A stretch of DNA of 32,000 nucleotides from Cuniculiplasma divulgatum (GCF_900083515.1 NZ_LT671858.1:660001-692000); one strand, 5' to 3'. Counted from the first letter of the stretch, positions 44 through 27,910 are shown. Notes: a model not told the origin generated them from the letters alone. Program-made: numbers and translations.

Positions 44-1399
44 TTATTTTTTGATCCTTTTCTTAACGTCTTCTAATTTCCCATTCTTTTCTAATTCTAC
101 TAGTAGAGAAGCGAGGAGATCCAACTTAGAATCGTCAGGAAGATTATTCATGGTAGTCTTAAGTTCAGGACTTAATAGATCAGATTCCTGTAAGGTTTCC
201 ATGACCTTTTCCCTTTCTTCTTCAATCTTTACAAAGTCTTCCTGCTTCATTGGTGATCCACAGTTACTACAGAAGCGTGCTGACCCTGTATTGATTACGT
301 GACACCTTGGACATTTCCTATTAACCTTAGATAATGGTTTCTTTAATTCTTCGTCTGTTATTTCGATTCCCTGAGCCTTTAGAATTGCAGTTATCTGACC
401 TGTTTTGTCTAAGTGAGTGTAGTTGTCAGCCATTTTATTGGAAGCCCAGCCCATTTGCTTTACAAAGACCTGTAACGGTGTTTCTACTGCTAAGCGAGTA
501 GCACAACTATGCCGGAATAAATGCGGTGAAATTTGCTTGGTTATTCCTGCCCTGTTCACAGATTTCCTTATCAATGCCCTAAGGTCTTCATAGGTTAGTG
601 ATTCCCCTAAATTTTCCTTACCAATGCCTACAAACAGATGGTTGTTTTGGTCAAATCTATCCTTCTGGATATCCTTCAGGTATTCTATATATTGAGGAAT
701 GATTACTACGCTGTCGCCTGTAAGGACAACGCTTCTTTGCCTGTAGTTCTTTGATCCTTCAGAAATGTTTAGGACTGCGTAAAGACCGTCTGTGCTTTTA
801 CTAAAGTCCTTAATCTTTAGCTTAAGTAATTCGCTTGCCCTGATTCCTGAATCCCACAGAAGTGAGATTATGGATTTATCCCTAATATTCTTACACGCCT
901 TTAGGATTGCCTGTAGTTCTTCATAAGAAATCATTTGGTCAGGTCTTTTGTATCTGCTTCCTATTTTTTCACTGTGTATGTCATTCCAGAATTCTGGAAA
1001 GTCTTCCCTTTCTTCCTTAGGTAATTCTGCGTTGTATTTTTTGAAGCAGAATTTAACAAATTTCTTCATAGTCTTCTTAAGATCGGAGATAGTAGCAGAT
1101 GAGTAGTGAGTTCCCCTTATGGTTATTTTGTCCCTTAATTTTCCTATGACCATTAGCACGTCTTTTTCTTTAGGATTTATTCGACCCTTAGAGTCCAGGA
1201 TTTTATCCCCGAAGCTTTCGCCCAGTATCAGAAGTCTTTCGTAATAGTAGTATTCCCTGTGTTGTTTTATACCTGAGCCTTCCCTAAGAGTAAGGACAAA
1301 TTCAAAAATTTTATCCTTCAGTTCCTTTGGAAGTCCTGAATTTTCCAATCTTTTTTTGACGCTTTCCACATTTTTACTGACATTATATATTTCAGCCAT
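44..1399 (-). CDS. Tyrosine recombinase / phage-type integrase with C-terminal zinc-ribbon extension
   Basis: 451-aa ORF. Catalytic signature in the expected order: DSGIRASEL (Arg), HLFRHSCAT (His-x-x-Arg), GWAS, NYTH (Tyr327). It is followed by CPRC-x10-CSNC (residues 363-380) and an acidic helical tail. Confidence 0.8.
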   Translation of the reverse strand: MAEIYNVSKNVESVKKRLENSGLPKELKDKIFEFVLTLREGSGIKQHREYYYYERLLILGESFGDKILDSKGRINPKEKDVLMVIGKLRDKITIRGTHYSSATISDLKKTMKKFVKFCFKKYNAELPKEEREDFPEFWNDIHSEKIGSRYKRPDQMISYEELQAILKACKNIRDKSIISLLWDSGIRASELLKLKIKDFSKSTDGLYAVLNISEGSKNYRQRSVVLTGDSVVIIPQYIEYLKDIQKDRFDQNNHLFVGIGKENLGESLTYEDLRALIRKSVNRAGITKQISPHLFRHSCATRLAVETPLQVFVKQMGWASNKMADNYTHLDKTGQITAILKAQGIEITDEELKKPLSKVNRKCPRCHVINTGSARFCSNCGSPMKQEDFVKIEEEREKVMETLQESDLLSPELKTTMNNLPDDSKLDLLASLLVELEKNGKLEDVKKRIKK

Positions 1400-7937: not shown

Positions 7938-8010
7938 AGCTCTGTGGTGTAGTGGCCAAGCATAGTGGGCTCTGGACCCGCCGACGGCAGTTCGAATCTG
8001 CCCAGAGCTA
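7938..8010 (+). tRNA. tRNA-Gln (anticodon CTG)
   Basis: Hand-folded cloverleaf. Acceptor AGCTCTG/CAGAGCT with A1:U72, D stem GTGT/GCAT, anticodon stem GTGGG/CCCGC with loop CTCTGGA. T arm GGCAG-TTCGAAT-CTGCC, discriminator A. 73 nt, no encoded CCA. Confidence 0.9.
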
Positions 8011-8026
8011 CTTCAAGATGATTGGA

Positions 8027-14792: not shown

Positions 14793-16082
14793 ATGCTGAC
14801 ACTTGAAAGTAAGGATTTCATTCAGCTCAGTTTGCTTCTAGTGATCGCATCTTTCTCTATTCCTATAGCTAGGAAGGTATCACTTGTTGAAATTCCAATT
14901 CTGATATCTCTGGGATTGTTATTTGGACCAGGTCTCGGAGTAATTAATCATAGCTTTGCGGAGTACATGATTCAGGATTTTGCAGGATTTGGCGTGGGAA
15001 TACTCGGACTGGTAATCATACTGTATTACGAGAGTCATAACATAAATTTTAGGGTAATAAGGAAGTTTCTTCTTAACATCATATCCCTGAATACAGTAGG
15101 TATGGTTGTTACTTCTGTAGTTGCGGGCGTATTCTTCTCACTGCTCACAGGTGCGCCATTTCTGATTGGATTCCTGTTTGGAGCAATAATATCCCCAACA
15201 GACCCTTCAACCCTAATACCGCTGTTCAGGAAGATTAAGATAAAGGATGATTACTCGGGCACACTCATAGGTGAAAGTCTTTTCAATGATCCACTGGCAA
15301 TTATTCTTGTTACACTGGCTATATCATTCATTTATTCAGGATCTTCGTATTCTACACTTTTCAACAGTGTTACAGGTGCAGTGGGCATTATTGGTGGCAT
15401 TCCACTTTTCCTCGTGATCCAGATAGCTGTCCCATCGGTATTTGGAGTTGCCATGGGCTTCGGAATTATATATCTCAATAAATACCTAAATTTCGAGAAC
15501 CTTATTGTTGGTCTACTCCTTGGTGTGGTATTGTTTGAACTTACTGTGCTTTACGGATTAGGCATAACTCCATTCCCAGCAATCATTGCAACGGGTGCAA
15601 TAGTCGGAACATTCACAGACAAGAGTATATTCTGGTCAAGGGAATCAAATTTTCAGGAAAACCTCTCTTTCCTGGCACAGGGTATAATATTCATTCTGGT
15701 GGGGAGCCTAATAACGATTGGTGACATTACAGGTTATTTGCTGCAGGGCTTTATCCTTACACTCATTGTCATTTTTGTGGTAAGACCAATGGCAGTATTT
15801 ATATCATTACCACCTGGAAGATCCAAGAATAAGGGTCCGGCAAAAAGCTGGAGAACAAAAACTTTCATAGCGCTTTCAGGACCACGTGGTGTCGTTTCTG
15901 TGGTTGAAGGGGCAGTTCCCTATTCAATTGGATTACTGTCTGGTAATGCCTTACTGCTTAAATGGGGACTCGTACTTGAAATAGATGTTACTTTCATAGT
16001 ATTAATATCAATCCTTTTACAGACAATATACCTCCCAATAGTAGCAGGGAGATTATTGCCCCAGGATGCAACTCAAACCTGA
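14793..16082 (+). CDS. Na+/H+ (monovalent cation:proton) antiporter, CPA1/NhaP type
   Basis: 429-aa polytopic membrane ORF with SPTDP and ESLFNDPLAI blocks typical of NhaP/NHE exchangers. Starts 2 nt after nadE. Confidence 0.8.
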   Translation: MLTLESKDFIQLSLLLVIASFSIPIARKVSLVEIPILISLGLLFGPGLGVINHSFAEYMIQDFAGFGVGILGLVIILYYESHNINFRVIRKFLLNIISLNTVGMVVTSVVAGVFFSLLTGAPFLIGFLFGAIISPTDPSTLIPLFRKIKIKDDYSGTLIGESLFNDPLAIILVTLAISFIYSGSSYSTLFNSVTGAVGIIGGIPLFLVIQIAVPSVFGVAMGFGIIYLNKYLNFENLIVGLLLGVVLFELTVLYGLGITPFPAIIATGAIVGTFTDKSIFWSRESNFQENLSFLAQGIIFILVGSLITIGDITGYLLQGFILTLIVIFVVRPMAVFISLPPGRSKNKGPAKSWRTKTFIALSGPRGVVSVVEGAVPYSIGLLSGNALLLKWGLVLEIDVTFIVLISILLQTIYLPIVAGRLLPQDATQT

Positions 16083-17662
16083 ATTTCCTCTGTCATATCC
16101 AGAGATTGAAAAACCCTTCTCCTATCTTTATAAAACTGGTTTACCATATAATAGAAGTCCTTGTAGTTTGAAATTCCCTTTTCGATCATCTTATCCAATA
16201 TCCTTGTCCTGAGGTCTATCTCTTTCTCAAGTTCATCCTCAAATTTCCCCTCCTTCTCGGCTATTTTCTTTATGGCATAACTGAAGCCGGAATAGTTCTG
16301 GGTATCTGACTGTTCATTGAGGATGAATGCATTATTGATCAGTATATCCTTAGAAATGCTGTCCTGTCCAGCTATTTCTGAAATTGTCTTTATTCTCCTT
16401 CTTGATCCACGATCATCAGTTACATTCTGCAGTATTACTGCAACATCCAGTGTCAGGAGCAGATTTCTGGGAATGTTAATGGGTTTAGACTCCATCCTGT
16501 GAATGAAAGTACTAATATCATCTGCGTGGAAAGTGCCATAAACATATCTTCCAATGGACATTGCCTGGAATAGGGTGAACGCCTCAGCACCTCTTACCTC
16601 TCCCACAATAACGTAGCTTGGTCTCTGTCTCATAGTTACGGTAAGAAGGTCAAACATATCTATCTCCCCTGCCCTCTTTCCTGTTTCAGGGTCAAGTTTT
16701 CCATATCCCGTTCTTGTTACCATTGGAACCCAGTTTTCATGAACCAGGTTTATTTCTCTCGTATCCTCTATGGAAACAATCTTCTTTTGTGCAGGAATGA
16801 ATAAAAGTATGGCGTTCATTAGAGTTGTTTTACCTGTGGCAGTACCACCCACAACCATCACATTTCCGCCATATTCCGTAAGCAACCAGAAGTATGCAAA
16901 GACCCTGGTGTTACATAGAGACCTCTGTATTAGGTCAAGTGGTGTCAACGGCTCTTCCTTGAATTTCCTAATGGTAAACGATGATCCCTTATTTGTTATG
17001 TACTTCCCTATGGATGCAGATATTCTGGAACCATCTTCCAGTGTTGCATCAACAATGGGGTTTGATATGGATATATGCCTTCCCACGTCCTGAAGTATCT
17101 TCTTAACAAAGGTCTCGAGCTCTTCGACATCGTCATATATTATATTAGTTGGAATAAATCCAAAGGCCTTGTGATAAACGAATACGGGAACCCCAGGAGC
17201 ATCACAGGAAATATCCTCAATATTAGCATCCCTCATGATCGGATCTATTTTTCCGAACCCCTTTATATCTCTTTCAACATAGTATGTCAGGCTATCCATT
17301 TCATCAGGTGTGAAGGAGTTAGTCATTCTAAGTGCTTTTGTGAACTGGTCGACTGCATCATCCTTTGTTAGCCCACTTATGTTATACATTTCAGGGTCTG
17401 TTATGGATGCAATGAATTCATTCCTGTACTTAGCATATAACTTCGCAACTCTTTCTTTCACCTCAGGTTCATTAACCTCGTACCTGAAAATGGTAGCTCC
17501 TCTATCAAAATATACCCTTGAGAATACAGTCCCGGGTATCAACTCCTGAAAGAACTTATCCTCATTTGTCCTCTTCACAGTCCTGACAGGTGTTATTACC
17601 TGCCTGCTGAGGAATTTCCTCTTTTTTGTCTTCTTCTTTTTTGTTTTAGAAAATAAGGCCAT
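16073..17662 (-). CDS. FlaI/PilB/VirB11-type secretion ATPase, paralog 1 (distal gene of the operon)
   Basis: 529-aa ORF. Blocks: DPIMRDANIEDISC, GSSFTIRKF, Walker A GGTATGKTT, Asp box SIEDTREI, Walker B RPSYVIVGEVRGAE. The His box is altered to QAMSIGRYVYGTFHA. Lys-rich N-terminus. Confidence 0.85.
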   Translation of the reverse strand: MALFSKTKKKKTKKRKFLSRQVITPVRTVKRTNEDKFFQELIPGTVFSRVYFDRGATIFRYEVNEPEVKERVAKLYAKYRNEFIASITDPEMYNISGLTKDDAVDQFTKALRMTNSFTPDEMDSLTYYVERDIKGFGKIDPIMRDANIEDISCDAPGVPVFVYHKAFGFIPTNIIYDDVEELETFVKKILQDVGRHISISNPIVDATLEDGSRISASIGKYITNKGSSFTIRKFKEEPLTPLDLIQRSLCNTRVFAYFWLLTEYGGNVMVVGGTATGKTTLMNAILLFIPAQKKIVSIEDTREINLVHENWVPMVTRTGYGKLDPETGKRAGEIDMFDLLTVTMRQRPSYVIVGEVRGAEAFTLFQAMSIGRYVYGTFHADDISTFIHRMESKPINIPRNLLLTLDVAVILQNVTDDRGSRRRIKTISEIAGQDSISKDILINNAFILNEQSDTQNYSGFSYAIKKIAEKEGKFEDELEKEIDLRTRILDKMIEKGISNYKDFYYMVNQFYKDRRRVFQSLDMTEEIQV

Positions 17663-18517
17663 TTAGAGCACCCCTATTATCGCTAGAACCATTATACTTA
17701 TCAAAACCAATATTCCTGACATCATGGCACCTGAAGTTAGTCTTCCGTCCCTGAAAACTCCTGATATAAGTCCACTTGCAGCACTTTGAACAATTACACC
17801 TGCAGAGAATAACTTTTCTATCAGTCCATAGGAAGAGGAAGCAAGATTCAGAACGCCTCCACCGCTCAGGCCTCCACCTGCAATCTGCGGGAAGAAAAAT
17901 GTATCCAGCATAACAATAACAAATAGGAAGACTCCGAATGATGTTGCAAGGGTAGTAGAATAACTTCTCATATCGGCAAATCTACTTTCCCTCATTAGGT
18001 AGGTTTGTGTTGTGAAACTTGATACCAGGGATATAACATCAGATGTATTGCTGCCTGATTCACTTGCCTTTTTTATAATCTTGCCAACCCTTATAATGGA
18101 CGGTGATTTTAGCCTCTTCCCGAAATCATTCAGGGCAGTTTCTACCGGTATTCCAAGCTTAACCATTCCAGCTAGATGTTCAATTTCAATAGACAATGGA
18201 CCATATTTATTTTCCGCTGATCTCAGTATAGCTTCTGACATTGGAGTTCCAAAATTTGTATGTCCTGCAAGATCCCTAAGGAAATCAGGAAGTCTTCTTT
18301 CCGCTTCCTCTATTCTCTTAACTCTTGCAAAGTCCGCAAGACCAAATGGGAAGAACAGAATTACCATGGCAATGGAGGATAATGTCAGCGGATGAACCAG
18401 TGGGTTGAGATCGTTTATCTTGAAAAAATACCCAGTAAAGAATAAAACGAACATTGTTAGAACTGATCCTGCAAGCGCCACATATCTAAGTTCAACCCCA
18501 CCAATTTCACCCTTCAT
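17663..18517 (-). CDS. Polytopic membrane protein with one T2SSF (FlaJ/TadC-like platform) domain, C-terminal-half equivalent
   Basis: 284-aa ORF. N-terminal TM hairpin, then a cytoplasmic helical block (RLPDFLRDLAG...GIPVETALNDFGKRL...SGSN) and C-terminal TM segments. ATGA overlap with the upstream gene, and its stop abuts the ATPase-1 ATG. Confidence 0.65.
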   Translation of the reverse strand: MKGEIGGVELRYVALAGSVLTMFVLFFTGYFFKINDLNPLVHPLTLSSIAMVILFFPFGLADFARVKRIEEAERRLPDFLRDLAGHTNFGTPMSEAILRSAENKYGPLSIEIEHLAGMVKLGIPVETALNDFGKRLKSPSIIRVGKIIKKASESGSNTSDVISLVSSFTTQTYLMRESRFADMRSYSTTLATSFGVFLFVIVMLDTFFFPQIAGGGLSGGGVLNLASSSYGLIEKLFSAGVIVQSAASGLISGVFRDGRLTSGAMMSGILVLISIMVLAIIGVL

Positions 18518-19485
18518 ACATCCACCTCTCCAATGGTACTGCTAAGGATCAGAGCAAACATAACCGCTATTATTGGGATAATAAGGAACACAATTAGATA
18601 TAGCACAGTATCTGTCAGTGACCCTTCCCCTGGTATCACGGAAGTTACCGTACCTATGATTACCATTAATATTAGCGGGAACATAATTCCAACTATTATA
18701 TAACTTTCAGCGAGTACTGAGAGAGACTCTGTGTTCCTTTTTATTAGCGTGCTTAGTTCGGTCTGATACTGTACCGCCTTATCCTTGAAATAGCTCTTTA
18801 GGTCGCCACCAGAAGTGAGAGTGGTTATGATTCCCTGGAAGAATTCTGAGAGTCTCTGAGACGGAGAATTCGCGGCTCCATCCTTAACAGCATTGATTAT
18901 ATCCTCCCCAAACAATCTTGTTGAAACTGCAATGCTTTTTGCCTCTCTCGCAAGTTCACCATATTCAGTACTGTTTGAAAGCTCATACATAATATTTTCA
19001 ACTGGCATATCAGCAGAGGCCATTGTTGCGATGTAACCCATGGCCAGTGGCAGTACTGCGTCAATCTTTTTTCTTCGCGTACCAGCTATTGAATTTGGAT
19101 ATCCGGCCATGACAGCGAAATAAACAATGACTGCAAGGAACCAGAAGGCAAAGGAAAGATATGTGTAGGATGGAAATTTCAGTGAAAATATATTAACCGC
19201 AATAAAGCTGACGACCATGAATATGACTGCAATCATGATGCCTCTTGAATAATATTCTATAGCATCTATCGGCATTTTAGCCTTTCTCAGGCTCTCATCC
19301 ATTTTTTCAGTCTGAACATATTTTTCTACCAGATGTCCAAAGACTCTGACTGCGAACACGTCAAATATGGTAGGAGCTGGAATAACTACCTTTACGGGTT
19401 TTGGATTTAATTTTTTGTTCAGATTTGAGAGGAAACCATTGCTTTTGTTTTCCTTCTTTATCTGAATATCCTGACTTTTATGCAT
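18514..19485 (-). CDS. Polytopic membrane protein with one T2SSF (FlaJ/TadB-like platform) domain, N-terminal-half equivalent
   Basis: 323-aa ORF. TM hairpin, then IDAVLPLAMGYIATMASADMP...GEDIINAVKD...SGGDLKSYF helical block and C-terminal TM segments, the pattern of FlaJ/TadC family proteins. TAATG overlap with the ATPase-2 stop. Confidence 0.65.
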   Translation of the reverse strand: MHKSQDIQIKKENKSNGFLSNLNKKLNPKPVKVVIPAPTIFDVFAVRVFGHLVEKYVQTEKMDESLRKAKMPIDAIEYYSRGIMIAVIFMVVSFIAVNIFSLKFPSYTYLSFAFWFLAVIVYFAVMAGYPNSIAGTRRKKIDAVLPLAMGYIATMASADMPVENIMYELSNSTEYGELAREAKSIAVSTRLFGEDIINAVKDGAANSPSQRLSEFFQGIITTLTSGGDLKSYFKDKAVQYQTELSTLIKRNTESLSVLAESYIIVGIMFPLILMVIIGTVTSVIPGEGSLTDTVLYLIVFLIIPIIAVMFALILSSTIGEVDV

Positions 19486-21062
19486 TAAATACCACTCGCC
19501 ATTTTCATTGCAGTTTCTGGATCTTTATAATATATATTGATTATCCTTGTTATATTTGTATAATCTGTGATATTATTCTTAACCAGTCCGTCCAGTAGAG
19601 ACTTGCGCCTTTCAAACTCAAAGTTCATTTCCTCCTGAGTCCACTGTTTTGCATCTCTTATTTCATTCAAAATTTTGCTGAAACCTGAAAAGACCTGTTC
19701 ATTTTGGTTGAAGTCGTACGAAAATACCTTATTGTACATTATCTCTCCCGAATCCTGATCAGTACCAACAATTTCGTCAATCTCCATGAGTTTTCTCATA
19801 TTCCTGCTTCCCACTCTTACAAATTTATTGAATATCACAATATTAAGTGCACCGATAAGTACCCTTGGTATATTTAACGGGTTTGATTCCAGTCTGTTTA
19901 CAAGGGTTTCCATGGAATCTGCGTGAATGGTTGAGTAGGCAGTATGTCCTGTTGATATAGCCTGGAAGAGAGAATATGATTCTCTCCCCCTTATTTCACC
20001 AAGAACTATGTAGGTAGGTCTTTGCCTCATAGCCATCTTTACCAGTTCAAACATACCAATTGGTGGATTTTTTGAATCACCATTAGCGGTTGAATATATA
20101 CTTTCTCTGGTTGAAGTGGCTACCCAGTTCTGATGCATTATATTTATCTCCCTGGTTTCTTCAATAGAGAAAACCTTTGTATTAGATGGGATAAACATTA
20201 AAATTGCATTTATGGTACTTGTTTTCCCAACACCAGGAACACCAGCAATGATTGCGGATTTTAGATTTTCGACAGCGAACCATAAATATGTAGCGAGTTC
20301 AGAGGTTGCTGCACCATACTTTATCAACTCCACAGGCGTGAATGGAGATTCTCTAAATAGCCTGAAGGTAAAAGCAGAACCTTTGGTTGAAATTTCATTA
20401 CCAAATGTTAACTGGATTCTGTGACCCTGGGGAAAAGTTCCATCAATTATAGGTTCATTCATTGAAACTTCCTTTCCACACATCTGTGCAAGCCTTACAA
20501 CATATGAATCCAGATCCTTCTCATTATCAAAAACTATGTTTGTTTTAAGTGAACCGTGTATTTTGTGTTCAACATAAACTGGAATTCCAACTCCATTACA
20601 GGAAACATCCTCCACTAGCGGGTCTCTTACAACAGGTTCCAGTGGCCCATAACCTTCGTAATTCCTCTTAATGAAATACTTGATCTTATCCACTGTTCTT
20701 CTATTAAGCTTATATTTCCTACCTTTGAGATAGGAATCTATAACTTTCTCTATGGTTAATTGTGATAGATCTTCTGGAAGATTCTTTGAACTTTTAACAA
20801 TTTGTTCCATATTCTTTGATATTTTTTTAAGAAGTATCTCCTCATCTGAAGATAAAACAGGTTCATTTGCAATATATATTGATTCCATGCTCGTTGGATT
20901 CCATGAAATTTCAACAGTTACAGTCTGTGGTATGATATTATATTCATCAAGAATTTCGTACTTTCCTACACTCGGAACTTCAGTTATTCGTTCTTCCCTT
21001 TTGCTTGGGACATTTTTTACAGGTTTTTTTTCCTTCTTTTTGGTAGGAGAAAATAAAGGCAT
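19485..21062 (-). CDS. FlaI/PilB/VirB11-type secretion ATPase, paralog 2 (first gene of the operon)
   Basis: 525-aa ORF. Blocks: EPVVRDPLVEDVSC, GSAFTFRLF, Walker A GVPGVGKTS, SIEETREI, RPTYIVLGEIRGRE, canonical His box QAISTGHTAYSTIHA. Lys-rich N-terminus similar to paralog 1. Confidence 0.85.
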   Translation of the reverse strand: MPLFSPTKKKEKKPVKNVPSKREERITEVPSVGKYEILDEYNIIPQTVTVEISWNPTSMESIYIANEPVLSSDEEILLKKISKNMEQIVKSSKNLPEDLSQLTIEKVIDSYLKGRKYKLNRRTVDKIKYFIKRNYEGYGPLEPVVRDPLVEDVSCNGVGIPVYVEHKIHGSLKTNIVFDNEKDLDSYVVRLAQMCGKEVSMNEPIIDGTFPQGHRIQLTFGNEISTKGSAFTFRLFRESPFTPVELIKYGAATSELATYLWFAVENLKSAIIAGVPGVGKTSTINAILMFIPSNTKVFSIEETREINIMHQNWVATSTRESIYSTANGDSKNPPIGMFELVKMAMRQRPTYIVLGEIRGRESYSLFQAISTGHTAYSTIHADSMETLVNRLESNPLNIPRVLIGALNIVIFNKFVRVGSRNMRKLMEIDEIVGTDQDSGEIMYNKVFSYDFNQNEQVFSGFSKILNEIRDAKQWTQEEMNFEFERRKSLLDGLVKNNITDYTNITRIINIYYKDPETAMKMASGI

Positions 21063-21080
21063 TAAAACATCTAATATAAC

Positions 21081-21094
21081 GCATTAATTAAAGA
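21081..21094 (-). promoter_or_regulatory. TATA-like box (minus-sense tttaattaatgc) about 26 nt upstream of the ATPase-2 ATG; candidate leaderless promoter of the four-gene operon
   Basis: Seen in sequence. Spacing fits archaeal TATA-to-start distance if the transcript is leaderless. A second candidate, tttttatat, lies about 50 nt upstream. Confidence 0.3.
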
Positions 21095-21131
21095 TTATGG
21101 TTGTCAGAAAATATAAAAATAGAAATAACAC

Positions 21132-21168: not shown

Positions 21169-21240
21169 GGGCTGGTAGATCAGAGGTAGATCGCTTCCTT
21201 GGCATGGAAGAGGCCAGGGGTTCAATTCCCCTCCAGTCCA
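21169..21240 (+). tRNA. tRNA-Ala (anticodon GGC)
   Basis: Hand-folded. Acceptor GGGCTGG/CCAGTCC with the G3:U70 alanine identity pair, D stem GATC/GATC, anticodon stem CTTCC/GGAAG with loop TTGGCAT. T arm AGGGG-TTCAATT-CCCCT, discriminator A. 72 nt. Confidence 0.9.
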
Positions 21241-21375: not shown

Positions 21376-22155
21376 TCAAATACCAGATCTGATACTTTTA
21401 TATATTCTTAGAGAAATGCCAAGGAAAACAAGCATTACTATGAGTAATATACCAGCATAAAAGAATGTGCCTGAAGTAACAGAAGATATAAGTGAATCTC
21501 TTAGTATATTGGCAATGAAACTCAGTGGATTTGATCCTGAAAGTGTTCTCAACCATAGTGGGGTAGTGGATGTTATAGGATAAAATGCAGTGCTTGCAAA
21601 GTCAAGCATAAAGAATAGAACTATTGTGATAGTGTTATATGCCTGCATGGACTTTGACAGTCCTGATATTATGAGGAATAGAGAGGAAAATAACATTGTT
21701 CCAACAACTATTGCAAATACTGACAGCAATATGCTTTCTGGAGTAACAATCACTGTAATAGGTATAAGTAGGGAAAATCCAAGCATGATCAGGGAACCAA
21801 CGAGTGCAAAAATAATGGAAACAGTTATAATTCCTAGAAGATAATCTATTCTTCTGAATGGACCAACCATTATCCTTTCAAACATACCCCATCTTCTGTC
21901 GGACCACAACATGCTTCCTCCTATATTTCCTGCAGTGAATGATTCAAGTGCTATAATTCCCGGGGCTAGAAACGTTGTATATGATACAGAACCACCCGAC
22001 TGGAGTGGAACACCTGTTGTGACTATGCCCTGAAACATGAATCCCATAACAAATAGATAGAGAGTAGGCAAACCAAGCATAAAGATAAGAGTTCCAATAT
22101 CAATGTTTACGATTATATTCCTGATGGTTAACCTTATAAAAGCAGGTATCTTCAT
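21376..22155 (-). CDS. ABC-2 type transporter permease
   Basis: 259-aa ORF with about six TM segments. ATGA overlap with the upstream ABC ATPase gene, the typical ABC-2 exporter pairing. Confidence 0.75.
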   Translation of the reverse strand: MKIPAFIRLTIRNIIVNIDIGTLIFMLGLPTLYLFVMGFMFQGIVTTGVPLQSGGSVSYTTFLAPGIIALESFTAGNIGGSMLWSDRRWGMFERIMVGPFRRIDYLLGIITVSIIFALVGSLIMLGFSLLIPITVIVTPESILLSVFAIVVGTMLFSSLFLIISGLSKSMQAYNTITIVLFFMLDFASTAFYPITSTTPLWLRTLSGSNPLSFIANILRDSLISSVTSGTFFYAGILLIVMLVFLGISLRIYKSIRSGI

Positions 22156-23087
22156 TTTTCAACCACCTTCATGAACACATCATCAAGAGTTGGATTATCT
22201 ATCATTATCTTGTCAGTCTTTATTCCCATCTCAGACAGATTTTGAAGTATTTTTCCAACTATAGTTTCTATCCTGTCAGATACCACCAGAATCTCATTAT
22301 TTGTAATATCAACCTCTGCAATATTTCCATTCTCAACTCCAGTGGTGATATCCTCTTTCTTAACACCTTTCTCAGAGGTATATCCTATTTTCAGTGTTCT
22401 TAACGAACCATATTTTGTCTTCAGATCTGATGATGTACCCTCTGCTACTTTTTTACCATTATTCACTATGCCAATCCTGTCACATATATAATCTGCCTCT
22501 TCGAGATTTTGTGTGGTAAACAGTACGGTCATTCCCTTCTTTGCCTGTGATTTTACATAATCGAGTATGGTCCTCCTCATTATTGGGTCAAGTCCTACCG
22601 TTGGCTCGTCAAGAAAGAATACGTCCATATTATGCATGAATTCCCTTGCTACCTGCACTCTTTTTTTCTGACCACCACTCAGGTCATACATTCTTTTTTT
22701 CCTTAGTTCATCAAGATCAAAAAGTTCTATAAGCATCTCCTTCCTTGATTTTGTCTCCTCTCTTGGCAATTCCCACATCATACCATACAGTTTGAAGTTA
22801 TTTTCAACTGTGGTAAAATCAAAAGCTTCCTCCTGTTGTACCACACCTATCCTTCTTCTAATTTCAGTACCGTTCCTTGAAACATCGAGACCCAGAACCT
22901 CCGCTACACCAGAATCATATCCAATAAGAGTTGTAAGAACTTTTATTGTTGTACTCTTTCCAGCGCCATTTCTTCCAAGCAGACCGTAAACTTCCCCTTT
23001 CTTTACATTGAATGAAAGATGATCAACTGCTAGTTTCTTTCCATCGTATGATTTCACAAGTTCATCCACAATTATAGCGTCTTGCAC
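22152..23087 (-). CDS. ABC transporter ATP-binding protein (DrrA/ABC-2 exporter type)
   Basis: 311-aa ORF with Walker A GRNGAGKST, Q-loop, signature LSGGQKKR, Walker B VFFLDEPT and H-loop region. Confidence 0.9.
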   Translation of the reverse strand: MQDAIIVDELVKSYDGKKLAVDHLSFNVKKGEVYGLLGRNGAGKSTTIKVLTTLIGYDSGVAEVLGLDVSRNGTEIRRRIGVVQQEEAFDFTTVENNFKLYGMMWELPREETKSRKEMLIELFDLDELRKKRMYDLSGGQKKRVQVAREFMHNMDVFFLDEPTVGLDPIMRRTILDYVKSQAKKGMTVLFTTQNLEEADYICDRIGIVNNGKKVAEGTSSDLKTKYGSLRTLKIGYTSEKGVKKEDITTGVENGNIAEVDITNNEILVVSDRIETIVGKILQNLSEMGIKTDKIMIDNPTLDDVFMKVVEK

Positions 23088-23568: not shown

Positions 23569-26121
23569 ATGAATGAAAATTATCCAAAGTTGGCCTATAG
23601 ATTTCAACTTAACAACAATTTCACATTTTATGATGTTATCAGTACTATCCCATATCTGGCAAATTTAGGAGTGACACATATATATGTTTCTCCCATCCTC
23701 AAGGCTAGATCAGGAAGTTCTCACTGTTATGATATTGTTGATTTTAGATACGTAAACGAGGAACTTGGAGGGGAAGAGGGATTGAGAGAGATGGTTGATA
23801 GGGCAAGGGAGAACAATATGAAAATTTTAATTGACATAGTACCAAATCACATGGCTTACTCCCTTGAAAACACCTATATTCTTGACTTCATCAAAACTGG
23901 AAACCCTGATATACTGAGGTTATTCGACATTAAGCAGTCTCCATTGGTTATGGATGGAAAACTCATTTTTCCATTTCTTTCCTCTCCTTTGAATGATCTA
24001 ATAAATATGGGAAAGGTGGCTATAACACTGGAGGGTGATATTTACTTAGATTTTGATGGAAATAAAATTCCCTGCTCTGACAGATCTAAGGAGTGGATAA
24101 TTAGAAGATCAGGAGAGGAATTCCTGAGTGTGAATGCAATATTTGATAATAATGATGATTTCACGAAGAAGCGTATCGAAGAAATAATTCACGATGTAAA
24201 TGGAAACAGAGATTTACTTAACAGTTTCATTGATTTGCAGAACATTATACCAGAATGGTGGCAGAGTAGCGGGAAAATCTTGAATTACAGACGTTTTTTC
24301 GCTGTAAACGATATGATTGCACTGCGTTCGGAAGATGCAACGGTAATAGAATCGAGACACAGTACAATAAGGAGACTAATAGAAGATTATGGTATTTCTG
24401 GACTTAGAATTGATCATCTTGACGGAATACATGATCCAGAATCATATCTTCACTTCGTACAAAGCGAGCTCCATCCTGAATTCATAATAGTAGAAAAAAT
24501 CTTATCAGAAAACGAGTGTCTAAGTAATAAGCTGAAGACTGACGGCACAACAGGATACGATTTTCTCTGGAAAGTGATATCGCTTTTTACGGATTACGAG
24601 GGTTTAGACGAGATCAAAATAAACTACAATAATGATCAGGGGAAATATGAGCAGACAAAGGCAGATGAAGAACATTTAGTTTATAATCTTAAGGATCTAT
24701 TTATGAACGAAGAATTTGCTGGGGATATACTCAATCTATCGTGGAACATATATGAAAATCTGGTTTTAAGGGATCACTATGAATTCTCAATAAAACAAAT
24801 TGAAAACGCAATAAAAATTTATTTCAAGAATTTGAAAAAATACAGAAGTTATTCAAATCTTAATTCAATTGGGGAGCTTTCAGAAGATTTCACTAGAATA
24901 GGGCTAAAAACCAATGATCCAGTACTCGTCACGGCCGGTGAATATCTCAATCACAAACATAAAATGGGTGCTGATGCGTTCCTTCAACTTCAGGAATATT
25001 CTGGCGCAGTAATGGCAAAATCAGTGGAAGATAGGGCATTCTTTGCCTACAACCCATTTGTTTTTCTGAACGAGGTGGGAGGTAGCGTGTGGAATAGTGC
25101 CGTATCTAATAAAAACTTTATAAAGTTCCTGAATGAAAGAAAAAAATTTACACATTCAATGAATGAAACTTCAACTCACGATACAAAATATGGGGAGGAT
25201 CTTCGTGCTTCAGGCATAGTGATTTCAGAATTCCCGGATCTTTTTAGAAAGGCAATAGAAGAGGCCAGGAACTCATATATAACTGAGGGATTGGCAGGGA
25301 GATTGCGCAACGAACATTTATATTATATAGTTCAAATGGTGGTTGCATCTGTGAAGTCAAGAGGATTATACAAAAGTTATAAAGATTCACTAAATTCACA
25401 CATCATAAAAGCAGTGAGAGAATCAGGATTAAAAACAGGATGGAAAAACATTAATGTGGAATATGAGAAAAGCTGCATAGAATTAACGGAGAAAGTTGTT
25501 GAATTTGCAGAATTAAAACCCTCCTCAAACATAGGCAGATTATCTCAAATGTGTAAAGAGTATGGGCAGTTGAATTCCATATCCATGCTTGTTTTAAAGT
25601 TCATGCTTCCAGGATTCACATCAAACTATCAGGGTTCAGAAAACCACAACTATCACTTTACAGATCCAGACAACAGGATTCCAGTGGACTATAGTTTACT
25701 GAAGGATCAATCAGATCTTGACCTTAAAAAAGATTACCTCTCCATAGACAGTTTATACGAAAATGGATTCAAACTTTCTCTCTTCAGGAGACTTAGTCAG
25801 ATCAGAGAAGAGAATCTATCTCTTATAAATGAAGGTGACCTCAGTCTTCTAGAAACTCAGGGAGAAGGGAGTTCAAGCGTAATCATAATAGGAATTAGAA
25901 AGAAAAATAGGCGGCTCATAATTTTCACTGGTAGATACTTTTCAAAAATAAAGGAAGGAAGTGCTCTCAATTATAGTAATACATTTTTAAGTCTTAATAA
26001 GGAATGGCAGGGGAAGTACACTGATCTGTTAAGCAACTCCTCGTTAGAAATAAGAGAAAAAGTGAATATAAGCGATCTAATGAAGCACAATTCATTTTTG
26101 ATTATAAAGGCTGATGACTAA
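23569..26121 (+). CDS. treY: Malto-oligosyltrehalose synthase (GH13)
   Basis: 850-aa ORF with VTHIYVSPILKARSGSSHCYDIVD, DIVPNHM, GLRIDHLDG (nucleophile region), IIVEKIL (acid/base Glu) and TSTHDTKYGEDLR, the TreY signature set. Confidence 0.9.
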   Translation: MNENYPKLAYRFQLNNNFTFYDVISTIPYLANLGVTHIYVSPILKARSGSSHCYDIVDFRYVNEELGGEEGLREMVDRARENNMKILIDIVPNHMAYSLENTYILDFIKTGNPDILRLFDIKQSPLVMDGKLIFPFLSSPLNDLINMGKVAITLEGDIYLDFDGNKIPCSDRSKEWIIRRSGEEFLSVNAIFDNNDDFTKKRIEEIIHDVNGNRDLLNSFIDLQNIIPEWWQSSGKILNYRRFFAVNDMIALRSEDATVIESRHSTIRRLIEDYGISGLRIDHLDGIHDPESYLHFVQSELHPEFIIVEKILSENECLSNKLKTDGTTGYDFLWKVISLFTDYEGLDEIKINYNNDQGKYEQTKADEEHLVYNLKDLFMNEEFAGDILNLSWNIYENLVLRDHYEFSIKQIENAIKIYFKNLKKYRSYSNLNSIGELSEDFTRIGLKTNDPVLVTAGEYLNHKHKMGADAFLQLQEYSGAVMAKSVEDRAFFAYNPFVFLNEVGGSVWNSAVSNKNFIKFLNERKKFTHSMNETSTHDTKYGEDLRASGIVISEFPDLFRKAIEEARNSYITEGLAGRLRNEHLYYIVQMVVASVKSRGLYKSYKDSLNSHIIKAVRESGLKTGWKNINVEYEKSCIELTEKVVEFAELKPSSNIGRLSQMCKEYGQLNSISMLVLKFMLPGFTSNYQGSENHNYHFTDPDNRIPVDYSLLKDQSDLDLKKDYLSIDSLYENGFKLSLFRRLSQIREENLSLINEGDLSLLETQGEGSSSVIIIGIRKKNRRLIIFTGRYFSKIKEGSALNYSNTFLSLNKEWQGKYTDLLSNSSLEIREKVNISDLMKHNSFLIIKADD

Positions 26122-27910
26122 ATTGAAACCAGACACTCTATCGTACCGGAAACTCAGTTATGAGGATATAGGACTGTGGAAGAATGGCAGCGAACTACTT
26201 GCAACAGTATGGGCACCTTTTGCAAAAAAAGTTGAGATCAAAATAGATGATCAGAAACTTATGGAATTGAGGAGAAATGACTATGGTATATGGGAAGGTT
26301 CTTCAAGCTTCAGGGAAGAATATAAGGAATACAGCGTAATACTCAATGGAAGAGAAAGATTACCAGATCCTGCTTCAAAGTATCTAGTGAATGGAGTTTA
26401 TGGTTATAGCACCATAGTCGATTTAGACTTCAAAAATAATCTGGACACTGGCATTAATATAGATCTCAAGAACGCGGTTATCTATGAATTACATACAGGT
26501 ACTTTCAGCGAAAAAGGTAATTTTGCAGGGATCAAGGAAAAACTAGACTATCTTGAAAAACTTGGAATTAATGTAATAGAATTAATGCCAATAGCGCAGT
26601 TTGAGGGAAGAAGAAACTGGGGCTACGACGGTGTGTTCCCTTACGCTGTCCAGAATTCCTATGGCAGTATATCAGAACTGATCAAATTAGTAAAGGATGT
26701 CCATTCAAGGGGCATTTCCATAATTCTTGACGTTGTCTATAATCATGCTGGACCAAGAGGAAACGTATTAAATAGTTTTGGACCATATTTTTCGGATAAA
26801 TATAAAAGTCTATGGGGAAATGCCACGAACTTTGATGGCCAATGGTCAGATTACGTGAGAAATTTCTACATTCAAAACGCAGTATACTGGATTGACTTTT
26901 TTGGATTTGATGGACTCAGGCTCGATGCAATTCATGGTATTTATGATAATTCCCCAGTACATTTTCTTAAGGAACTCAGGGCAGATGTTAACAAATATTT
27001 TGAGAATAGTAATAAGAAACCAATATTGATCGCAGAAAGTGATGCAAACAATCCACTCACCATATCTAGCATCGACCAGTGTGGCTTTGGAATGGACGCT
27101 CAATGGTGTGACGATTTTCATCACTCTATCCATTCATATCTGACAGGAGAAGGCCAGGGATATTATTCTGACTATGGGCATTCATGGCAAATACTGAAGG
27201 CCATGGAAAGTGGTTTTGTTTATCGCGGGGAATATTCCATGTTTTTGAAAAGAACAAGGGGTGTGAGAGGTAAACAGATAAGCCCTAGCAAATTAATAGT
27301 ATTCTCTCAAAACCATGATCAGGTAGGAAACCGTAAGAATTCAGATCGTAATGGCAGCTACTACGGAAAAGAAAAATCATTGCTATTTGGGGCAATATGT
27401 CTCTTGTCACCTTATGTTCCTATGATATTCATGGGAGAAGAGTTCTTCTCGAAAGATCATTTCTGGTTCTTCATTGATACAGATGATGCTACCTTTGCAG
27501 ACATTGTTAGAAAGGGAAGAAATGAAGAATTCTCATATTTCACAGGCAATGTAGATATACCAGCACCTAACTCATATGAGGCATTTCACGAATCGCAATT
27601 AAGCTGGGGAGTTTTGAATAATAATGAGAATCTGGAATATTTGAGAGTTTATCAACAGTTGATAGCCATAAGAAAGAAATATAAACTCGGATATGGAGTT
27701 AGATTTGAGACAACATTGATTGGAGAAATTTTAAATATAAACTATTTCATTGATAAAAATAGTAAATTGTTATGCTTTTTCAATCTTTCAGGCAAATCAG
27801 TAAATATTAATCACATAAAGGGTGATGTAATTGTGAGCAGTACGGATAATACCTTGTCAAATTCCAAAATTGAGGCATATGGATTCAGGGTTGTATTTTG
27901 TTGTAATTAA
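26114..27910 (+). CDS. treZ: Malto-oligosyltrehalose trehalohydrolase (GH13)
   Basis: 598-aa ORF with WGYDGV, LDVVYNHAGP, GFDGLRLDAIHGI, ILIAESD and FSQNHDQVGNR. It overlaps treY by 8 nt. Confidence 0.9.
   Translation: MTKLKPDTLSYRKLSYEDIGLWKNGSELLATVWAPFAKKVEIKIDDQKLMELRRNDYGIWEGSSSFREEYKEYSVILNGRERLPDPASKYLVNGVYGYSTIVDLDFKNNLDTGINIDLKNAVIYELHTGTFSEKGNFAGIKEKLDYLEKLGINVIELMPIAQFEGRRNWGYDGVFPYAVQNSYGSISELIKLVKDVHSRGISIILDVVYNHAGPRGNVLNSFGPYFSDKYKSLWGNATNFDGQWSDYVRNFYIQNAVYWIDFFGFDGLRLDAIHGIYDNSPVHFLKELRADVNKYFENSNKKPILIAESDANNPLTISSIDQCGFGMDAQWCDDFHHSIHSYLTGEGQGYYSDYGHSWQILKAMESGFVYRGEYSMFLKRTRGVRGKQISPSKLIVFSQNHDQVGNRKNSDRNGSYYGKEKSLLFGAICLLSPYVPMIFMGEEFFSKDHFWFFIDTDDATFADIVRKGRNEEFSYFTGNVDIPAPNSYEAFHESQLSWGVLNNNENLEYLRVYQQLIAIRKKYKLGYGVRFETTLIGEILNINYFIDKNSKLLCFFNLSGKSVNINHIKGDVIVSSTDNTLSNSKIEAYGFRVVFCCN

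Follow-up and report, generated by a model that had tools for sequence, protein, structure and literature searches.

The type IV pilus (T4P) machinery closest to the genes considered here has been described in the same archaeon, Cuniculiplasma divulgatum. We analyzed a stretch of 32,000 nucleotides from this organism (GCF_900083515.1, NZ_LT671858.1:660001-692000; hereafter the window), which harbors a minus-strand cassette of two paralogous secretion ATPases bracketing a membrane platform divided between two genes, Fa and Fb. Golyshina et al. (2016, Sci Rep; PMC5155288) listed CSP5_0712 and CSP5_0715 as secretion ATPases (arCOG01817) and CSP5_0713-14, clustered with both of them, as TadC-like proteins (arCOG01808; these assignments are taken from that paper), noted several pilin genes at other loci, at least three in number, likened the arrangement to that of Aciduliprofundum and reported the absence of archaellum genes from the genome. 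A later study (ISME J 2025, wraf176; PMC12448462) named the genes CdiPE1, CdiPE2 and the split pair CdiPFa/CdiPFb, solved the pilus structure by cryo-electron microscopy (cryoEM) at 2.6 Å, showed the filament of this abundant T4P to be built of the pilin CdiPB (CSP5_RS05915), found all four operon genes to be expressed (RNAseq), and observed adhesion of C. divulgatum but not twitching. It located the pilin genes cdiPA and cdiPB (the literature gives CSP5_1254-1255 / CSP5_RS05915) at a distance of about 500 kb from the operon of the machinery. In an earlier work, Makarova, Koonin and Albers (2016; PMC4858521) had reported that two tadC-like genes are common in the euryarchaeal Clade 1 and 2 loci and that Aciduliprofundum boonei has two distinct ATPases in one locus.

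The window comes from C. divulgatum S5 or from a strain indistinguishable from it, as it encodes two C. divulgatum proteins with 100% identity: SIM52668.1 (P0338), which equals the downstream ATPase over 529 aa, and 'Flagellar assembly protein J1' (P0354), which equals Fa. Moreover, the 323-aa open reading frame (ORF) of the window agrees with the CdiPFa sequence given in the supplement of PMC12448462. The four genes are CSP5_0712-0715, i.e., the CdiP machinery itself: they agree with it in gene content, in gene order and, for two of the four proteins, over the whole sequence (100% identity), and no difference was found. Very probably, they encode the cytoplasmic motor and the membrane platform of the CdiP T4P. 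The initial annotation of this DNA, made from the sequence alone, had presented the arrangement as uncatalogued, which it is not: the locus was catalogued in 2016 and named in 2025 (PMC12448462), both times in this very organism. The layout which that annotation took as established for Archaea, a single fused PilC with adjacent pilins, was also too narrow, as split platforms are known from the archaeal Epd system (EpdJ/EpdK; Denise et al., 2019) and pilins encoded in trans are common (Makarova et al.). The discovery value of our analysis is therefore limited, both the locus and the solved filament having been published for C. divulgatum. What it adds is that the cassette is widespread, that the platform split predates the ATPase doubling, and that the downstream ATPase bears an Arg/Lys/Gln signature in its His box.

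Among the other described systems, the Clade 2 locus of A. boonei (L081) has the same T2SSE-T2SSF-T2SSF-T2SSE order, an upstream ATPase grouping with that of the window, and a downstream ATPase with Lys in place of the first His-box His; it differs in having kept, next to the cassette, a pilin-like gene whose N-terminus is class III-like (MRRIRRKEEGIASTVGTI...) and in its downstream ATPase being only about 42% identical to that of the window. The Epd system of Methanococcus maripaludis (EpdL, EpdJ/EpdK) and the bacterial Tad systems (TadA/CpaF, TadB, TadC) also possess two adjacent platform genes with one T2SSF domain each, corresponding to the N-half (TadC) and the C-half (TadB) of a full PilC and both required (Denise et al., 2019), and their pilins can be short and adhesive. 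However, they have a single secretion ATPase plus an accessory ATPase of the FlaH or TadZ type, and their platform genes precede the ATPase gene, whereas the window locus has no EppA, TadZ or secretin and its ATPases are GspE2/FlaI-like and far from CpaF. The Aap pilus of Sulfolobus acidocaldarius (AapE, AapF, AapX, AapA/B), which served the authors of PMC12448462 as the naming template, is, like CdiP, an archaeal T4P that serves adhesion and combines an ATPase resembling FlaI with a platform resembling PilC; according to that paper, it twitches, its ATPase is single, its platform gene is fused, AapX is essential to it and its pilins are encoded nearby, in contrast to the two ATPases, the split platform, the lack of AapX and the lack of observed twitching in CdiP. 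As for the bacterial type IVa pili (T4aP) with PilB/PilT(/PilU), they likewise use more than one paralogous hexameric secretion ATPase per filament system, but PilT and PilU serve retraction, are short and often have their genes at other loci, while the window paralogues are full-length and bracket the platform genes. The nearest structures, GspE2 of Archaeoglobus fulgidus (2OAP/2OAQ) and FlaI of S. acidocaldarius (4II7/4IHQ), cover the N-terminal and ATPase domains; both are homohexamers from single-ATPase contexts.

Profile hidden Markov models detected the Pfam domain T2SSE in both ATPases (E 2e-26 in the downstream and E 1.9e-28 in the upstream one, the latter also matching PilB3_C with 34.5 bits) and a single T2SSF domain in each membrane protein (E 5e-14 in Fa and E 2.6e-11 in Fb). 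The NCBIfam models ArlJ, UpsF and BasF all place Fa in the N-terminal and Fb in the C-terminal half; as Fa and Fb match successive segments of the ArlJ model (positions 4-242 and 271-544 of 555, respectively), they are the N-half and the C-half of one PilC/TadC/FlaJ-type platform. Between Fa and Fb themselves no similarity was detectable by BLASTP. The upstream and downstream ATPases share 34% identity over 478 aa (E 3e-109), N-terminal regions included. Thus, both structural claims of the initial annotation, the two half-platforms and the end-to-end alignment of two ATPases with common secretion-ATPase motifs, proved correct.

The locus shows the hallmarks of archaeal T4P, namely a VirB11/FlaI-family ATPase with Walker A, Asp box, atypical Walker B followed by the catalytic Glu, and His box, and an adjacent polytopic PilC/TadC-type platform with T2SSF domains, here in two genes. 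With the Tad/Epd-like pili (T4cP, type IVc pili, as defined by Denise et al., 2019) it has in common the platform split into two one-domain genes; an ATPase of the TadA/CpaF type, an accessory ATPase of the TadZ/FlaH type and a peptidase of the EppA/TadV type are absent from the window. Both ATPases score below the equivalog cut-offs of ArlI, BasE, TadA, VirB11 and PilT: 372-377 bits with the FlaI/ArlI model NF058587 (upstream 372; cut-off 550), 136-155 bits with the TadA model TIGR03819 (cut-off 373) and 36-44 bits with the PilT model TIGR01420 (cut-off 319), and neither belongs to the PilT/PilU family, whose members are short and devoid of the N1 domain. By sequence, the nearest solved structure is 2OAP (384 and 367 bits, the lower value for the upstream ATPase), followed by those of FlaI (251-264 bits to both) and CpaF (116-134 bits). 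The profile classification that had been called for thus returns two T2SSE and two T2SSF proteins with GspE2/FlaI-like motors, and the locus belongs to Clade 2 of the euryarchaeal T4P loci (Makarova et al., 2016) and is not an archaellum. The annotation of the proteins as FlaI/FlaJ in the sources and the lack of an adjacent pilin gene could still suggest a remnant of an archaellum or a non-pilus machine for secretion or DNA uptake, with substrates other than pilins. This is very unlikely, given not only the FlaI score above but also the 53-82 bits of Fa and Fb with the ArlJ models (cut-offs 400-550) and the absence from the window of arlB/C/D/F/G/H, archaellins and stator or accessory genes, none of the former being reported in the genome either (PMC5155288). 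In addition, Oxyplasma meridianum has the cassette (L054) plus a separate archaellum operon, in other Thermoplasmatota the cassette has pilin-like genes of the DUF7289 type, class III-like at their N-termini, at its side, and C. divulgatum does make the abundant CdiPB pilus (PMC12448462).

As to the substrates, two FlaFind-like scans of the whole window in six frames revealed no ORF with a class III signal peptide, the only matches being internal segments of the platform gene itself, and tblastn with the pilin-like proteins of related loci found nothing in the window. The absence of pilin, peptidase and archaellum genes from the vicinity, asserted in the initial annotation, therefore stands, and so does its suggestion that the substrates are encoded elsewhere (the distance to cdiPA and cdiPB is about 500 kb); the other part of that suggestion, that they might not be pilins, does not, the cryoEM filament being CdiPB (PMC12448462). 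In six of six further two-ATPase loci (L078, L080-L084) a gene of 277-321 aa with an EEG(V/I)A-type, class III-like N-terminus flanks the cassette, and two of these six pilin-like genes match Pfam DUF7289; this gene is absent from the window and from the 55 Thermoplasmatales-affiliated loci described below.

A genome scan with an alignment of N-half homologues retrieved 77 loci (L001-L077), which were typed by ORF calling and BLASTP against the four window proteins; with the six further loci (L078, L080-L084) the number of related loci examined was 83. The order ATPase-Fa-Fb-ATPase was found, wherever the contig allows, in 55 of the 77, all in Thermoplasmatales-affiliated genomes (Cuniculiplasmataceae, E-plasma, O. 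meridianum and many metagenome-assembled genomes (MAGs) labelled Thermoplasmataceae), with protein identities from 98% down to about 40%; all 48 complete cassettes among them contain a separate Fb gene. Downstream synteny with NhaP-NadE-FolD is common to 40-47 of the 55 loci, and therefore the cassette has stayed at one chromosomal site through the Thermoplasmatales-affiliated radiation. The same four-gene cassette is present in the six further loci, which belong to other Thermoplasmatota (A. boonei L081, a Natronoplasma genome L082, L078, L080, L083 and L084). The remaining 22 of the 77 loci are more distant, coming from Poseidoniia, from other Thermoplasmatota and from a single MAG with the label Halobacteriales. 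In these loci split Fa/Fb are accompanied by one ATPase, encoded upstream, and a second is absent; several of them contain same-strand pilin-like ORFs. Thermoplasma, Picrophilus, Ferroplasma and Acidiplasma appeared neither among the 77 loci nor among the named protein matches, no dedicated search for their absence having been made. The neighborhood comparison across Thermoplasmata proposed in the initial annotation thus shows that the two-ATPase layout is a conserved cassette of many Thermoplasmatota and not unique to C. divulgatum, contrary to what PMC12448462 states.

The split of the platform is found in 83 of 83 related loci, down to about 25-30% identity and into Poseidoniia. As the distant single-ATPase loci also have split Fa/Fb, the split goes back further and extends more widely than the doubling of the ATPase, and no frameshift artefact lies behind it. 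Consequently, the alternative left by the initial annotation, a degraded duplicate in which a pilC/flaJ gene had recently been split by a frameshift and the second ATPase was redundant, is extremely improbable. The 4-nt ATGA overlap between Fa and Fb could be taken for a remnant of such a frameshift, but no fused gene occurs among the 83 loci. Homologues of the N-half with 517-563 aa were considered as fused full-length PilC, which would have implied a clade-specific split, and were rejected as such, the alignment (A1) showing that they have the same C-terminus and are N-halves with a long low-complexity N-terminal extension. Nor do the genes look decayed. In comparison with a colinear relative of 81% nucleotide identity (L007), the ratio of nonsynonymous to synonymous substitution rates (dN/dS, Nei-Gojobori) is 0.007-0.010 for each of the four genes, a rough estimate in view of near-saturated synonymous sites, though still far below 1, and the cassette proteins are 97.5-98.2% identical, versus 88-92% for NadE, FolD and the ABC ATPase. 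The four genes are under strong purifying selection, both ATPases keep all their catalytic residues in about 50 orthologues each, and all four genes are expressed according to the RNAseq data of PMC12448462.

Several variants of the cassette deserve mention. The N-half extension is a charged, low-complexity region of 200-400 aa present in many Thermoplasmataceae-labelled MAGs (L018-L042; P0019-P0027), bringing the protein to 517-721 aa in total (e.g., L034 3809-5974, L028 6849-8825); the Cuniculiplasma proteins are without it. In one sub-lineage (L008, L009, L046) the upstream ATPase has an N-terminal extension of 200-300 aa (734-736 aa in total). L013 combines an 840-aa upstream ATPase with a platform represented by a single 399-aa ORF, the C-half gene being missing; this may reflect either truncation or a fault in the assembly. 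The O. meridianum locus (L054; NZ_CP133772 812707-829537) is a complete two-ATPase, split-platform cassette of 40-50% identity; this organism was studied only for its archaellum in PMC12448462, and the accessible part of that paper contains no discussion of its pilus machinery. Just upstream of the cassette, the Natronoplasma-like loci share a conserved ORF of 74-75 aa (L082 2981-3208, L084 2984-3208), very basic and cysteine-containing (MKHKRKSKR...CDVKGCDEE...CKEHYKEYKK), which could encode a small zinc-binding regulator.

The relationships of the two ATPases were inspected in neighbor-joining (NJ) trees of the core domains of 256 and then 210 sequences, with 100 bootstrap replicates. The Arg-type downstream ATPases form a clade with 100% bootstrap support, and the upstream ATPases from all two-ATPase cassettes, including those of A. 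boonei and Natronoplasma, form another with 60-76%; the downstream and upstream Thermoplasmatales clades were strict sisters in 0 of 100 replicates. Because the upstream ATPases are united by this support and the sister relationship was never recovered, the duplication predates the divergence of the two-ATPase lineages, the two proteins being old paralogues. The grouping of all downstream types (R, K, Q) into one clan was supported by only 2-3%. By distance, the Lys-type downstream proteins are nearest to the single ATPases (0.76, the upstream clade being at 1.0). With backbone branches of only 0.01-0.02, the trees do not tell which of the two paralogues corresponds, as an orthologue, to the outgroups' single ATPase. 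Hence, of the phylogeny envisaged in the initial annotation, NJ gives the distinct old clades but not the order of duplication events.

The Walker A Lys/Thr, the Asp-box Glu, the catalytic Glu that follows the atypical Walker B, the two Arg fingers and the second His of the His box are invariant in both paralogues (100% of about 50 orthologues for each), and both enzymes are predicted to hydrolyse ATP. They have diverged at two complementary places. The upstream paralogue has retained the canonical, ancestral His box T-G-H...H, and its P-loop is changed to G-x-P-x-x-G-K-T-S, with Pro in 100% of 49 orthologues; the downstream paralogue has an ancestral-like Walker A, GGTA(T/S)GKTT (GGTATGKTT in the window copy), and a changed His box, where the first His position is Arg in 54/54 orthologues, versus His in 49/49 upstream paralogues and in 22/22 single ATPases, and the preceding Thr is mostly lost. 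In the window the Arg lies within ...SIGRYVYGTFHAD.... Among the best 119 database homologues of the downstream ATPase, this site is occupied by Arg in 45, Lys in 69 and His in none (5 were unscorable), and all Lys-type proteins whose loci we inspected come from the downstream position in a four-gene cassette; by comparison, His is found in 129 of 150 representatives clustered at 50% identity. In L078 and L080 both ATPases have Gln at this site, and neither copy keeps T-G-H. In PilB of Geobacter (PMC5424180) the second His binds the γ-phosphate, and the Thr between the two histidines is located at a backbone contact with the neighboring packing unit and was proposed to take part in inter-chain cooperativity. 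Since the Thr/His pair sits at this inter-chain contact, the downstream paralogue is probably an active ATPase with altered coupling between subunits. The two window ATPases also have similar Lys-rich N-terminal tails (MALFSKTKKKKTKKRKF and MPLFSPTKKKEKKPVKN), shared with close relatives only and not conserved at greater depth in the clade.

We suppose that the CdiP machinery would work as follows. The Fa and Fb polypeptides would pair into an equivalent of PilC, like TadB/TadC and EpdJ/EpdK; the activity of the hexameric ATPase would be passed through this platform, and processed pilins would be added at the filament base. The pilins, CdiPB as the major and CdiPA as the minor one, would be supplied in trans from about 500 kb away after processing by a prepilin peptidase, and the product would be an adhesive, non-twitching filament. 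Both ATPases would act in one machine, the downstream paralogue being specialized at the His-box element that couples neighboring subunits. We infer that the machinery assembles CdiPB because it has the only T4P-type ATPases reported in the genome. Several points weigh against this picture. The window contains neither a pilin nor a prepilin peptidase gene; the operon is linked to CdiPB through genome content; and the need for a second ATPase was found 'enigmatic' by the authors of PMC12448462. In an exploratory mirror-tree analysis the residual co-variation was highest for the ATPase-ATPase (partial r 0.57) and Fa-Fb (0.54) pairs, values confounded, however, by shared fold and shared phylogeny.

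A shared machine for both ATPases would fit their co-occurrence, fixed order, complementary motifs and co-variation. The roles of the two ATPases may be imagined in different ways. The ATPases could form separate homohexameric motors working on one platform, either for extension and retraction or for different pilin sets or conditions, as the paralogous ATPases of bacterial T4aP act in opposite directions (an analogy raised in PMC12448462) and as paralogous ATPase/TadC modules were proposed to be able to share pilin sets (Makarova et al.). The several pilin genes of C. divulgatum at no fewer than three loci (PMC5155288) and the age and distinctness of the paralogues, 34% identical and never strict sisters in the NJ replicates, would agree with this. 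On the other hand, neither ATPase is PilT-like by the scores given above, both having a full FlaI-like N-terminal region; two motors would have to share one platform pair; in Archaea and in Tad systems a lone ATPase can work in both directions (PMC12448462; PMC11300603); and twitching was not seen in C. divulgatum (PMC12448462). We consider separate motors a plausible, though not a probable, arrangement.

The second way is an obligate mixed motor, e.g., an (E1E2)3 hexamer on an (FaFb)n platform, with the downstream paralogue as a specialized subunit and not a motor of its own. Wherever the contig extends far enough, both ATPases are found, in fixed order and with tight coupling; the motif changes are complementary (invariant Pro in the upstream Walker A; Arg throughout in the downstream T-G-H, with Lys or Gln in other lineages), the latter affecting the Thr/His pair to which a cooperative role at the inter-chain contact was ascribed in PilB (PMC5424180); and in AlphaFold models of CpaF:CpaG:CpaH one TadB/TadC heterodimer spans two neighboring ATPase subunits (PMC11300603). 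The strongest residual co-variation being that between the ATPases points in the same direction, but paralogues can co-vary without contact. Moreover, the C2-symmetric cycle of PilB/CpaF is not obviously compatible with an A-B-A-B-A-B ring, and both paralogues have complete active sites and Arg fingers and hence no obvious mutual dependence. We therefore treat the mixed motor as possible but rather doubtful; what likelihood is left belongs to regulatory or partly redundant roles.

More generally, one might tentatively propose, while considering it unlikely, that an obligately two-ATPase motor of type IV filaments, either a mixed ring or two ATPases taking turns on Fa/Fb, is ancestral to a large part of Thermoplasmatota, its downstream paralogue being marked by Arg, Lys or Gln at the first His-box position. 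If it were so, archaeal type IV filaments would have in it their first described heteromeric or tandem motor, and the second ATPase called enigmatic in PMC12448462 would be explained. In any case, the comparative results sharpen the question of the second ATPase and provide mutational and structural targets in the motors of archaeal pili.

Features of the CdiP machinery locus in the window (positions counted from the first nucleotide of the window)
Feature	Position	Strand	Remarks
Upstream FlaI/GspE2-type secretion ATPase	19485-21062	minus	525 aa; ATPase2 of the initial annotation; probably CSP5_0715, one of CdiPE1/CdiPE2
CdiPFa, platform N-terminal half	18514-19485	minus	323 aa; one T2SSF domain
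CdiPFb, platform C-terminal half	17663-18517	minus	284 aa; one T2SSF domain
Downstream FlaI/GspE2-type secretion ATPase	16073-17662	minus	529 aa; ATPase1 of the initial annotation; probably CSP5_0712, the other of CdiPE1/CdiPE2
Candidate promoter region	21063-21100	minus	sequence reading only

ORF calls and direct reading of the sequence bore out the four minus-strand genes and their junctions as initially described: TAATG between the upstream ATPase and Fa, base 19485 being common to the stop of the former and the start of the latter; the ATGA overlap between Fa and Fb at 18514-18517; and TAA directly followed by ATG, i.e., a zero gap, between Fb and the downstream ATPase. SD-like (Shine-Dalgarno-like) motifs precede the third gene, Fb (GAGGTGG, 5-11 nt ahead of its ATG), and the fourth, the downstream ATPase (purine-rich AGGGGTG). 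No such motif was seen ahead of the ATG of the first gene in the candidate promoter region, where an AT-rich TATA-like element, TTTAATTAAT, occupies positions 21083-21092, i.e., -30 to -21 relative to the first ATG. A putatively leaderless first gene followed by coupled internal genes would fit the usual pattern of operon start signals.

The neighbors named in the initial annotation were also recovered: the Na+/H+ exchanger NhaP (14793-16082), tRNA-Ala (21169-21240) and an ABC-2 permease with its ABC ATPase (21376-23087); NAD synthase (NadE) and FolD belong to the neighbors of the cassette in the window as well. The 3' ends of the downstream ATPase gene (minus strand) and of the exchanger gene (plus strand) overlap convergently by 10 bp (16073-16082). 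At the very start of the window (44-1399, minus strand) a tyrosine recombinase with a C-terminal zinc-ribbon is encoded (Pfam Phage_integrase, E 4.6e-27); an integrated element may have its border here. The closest tRNA gene is tRNA-Gln (7938-8011). Beside the ABC-2 exporter, at 23569-27910 on the plus strand, two overlapping ORFs of 850 and 598 aa, each with an alpha-amylase (GH13) catalytic domain, look like tandem glycoside hydrolases.

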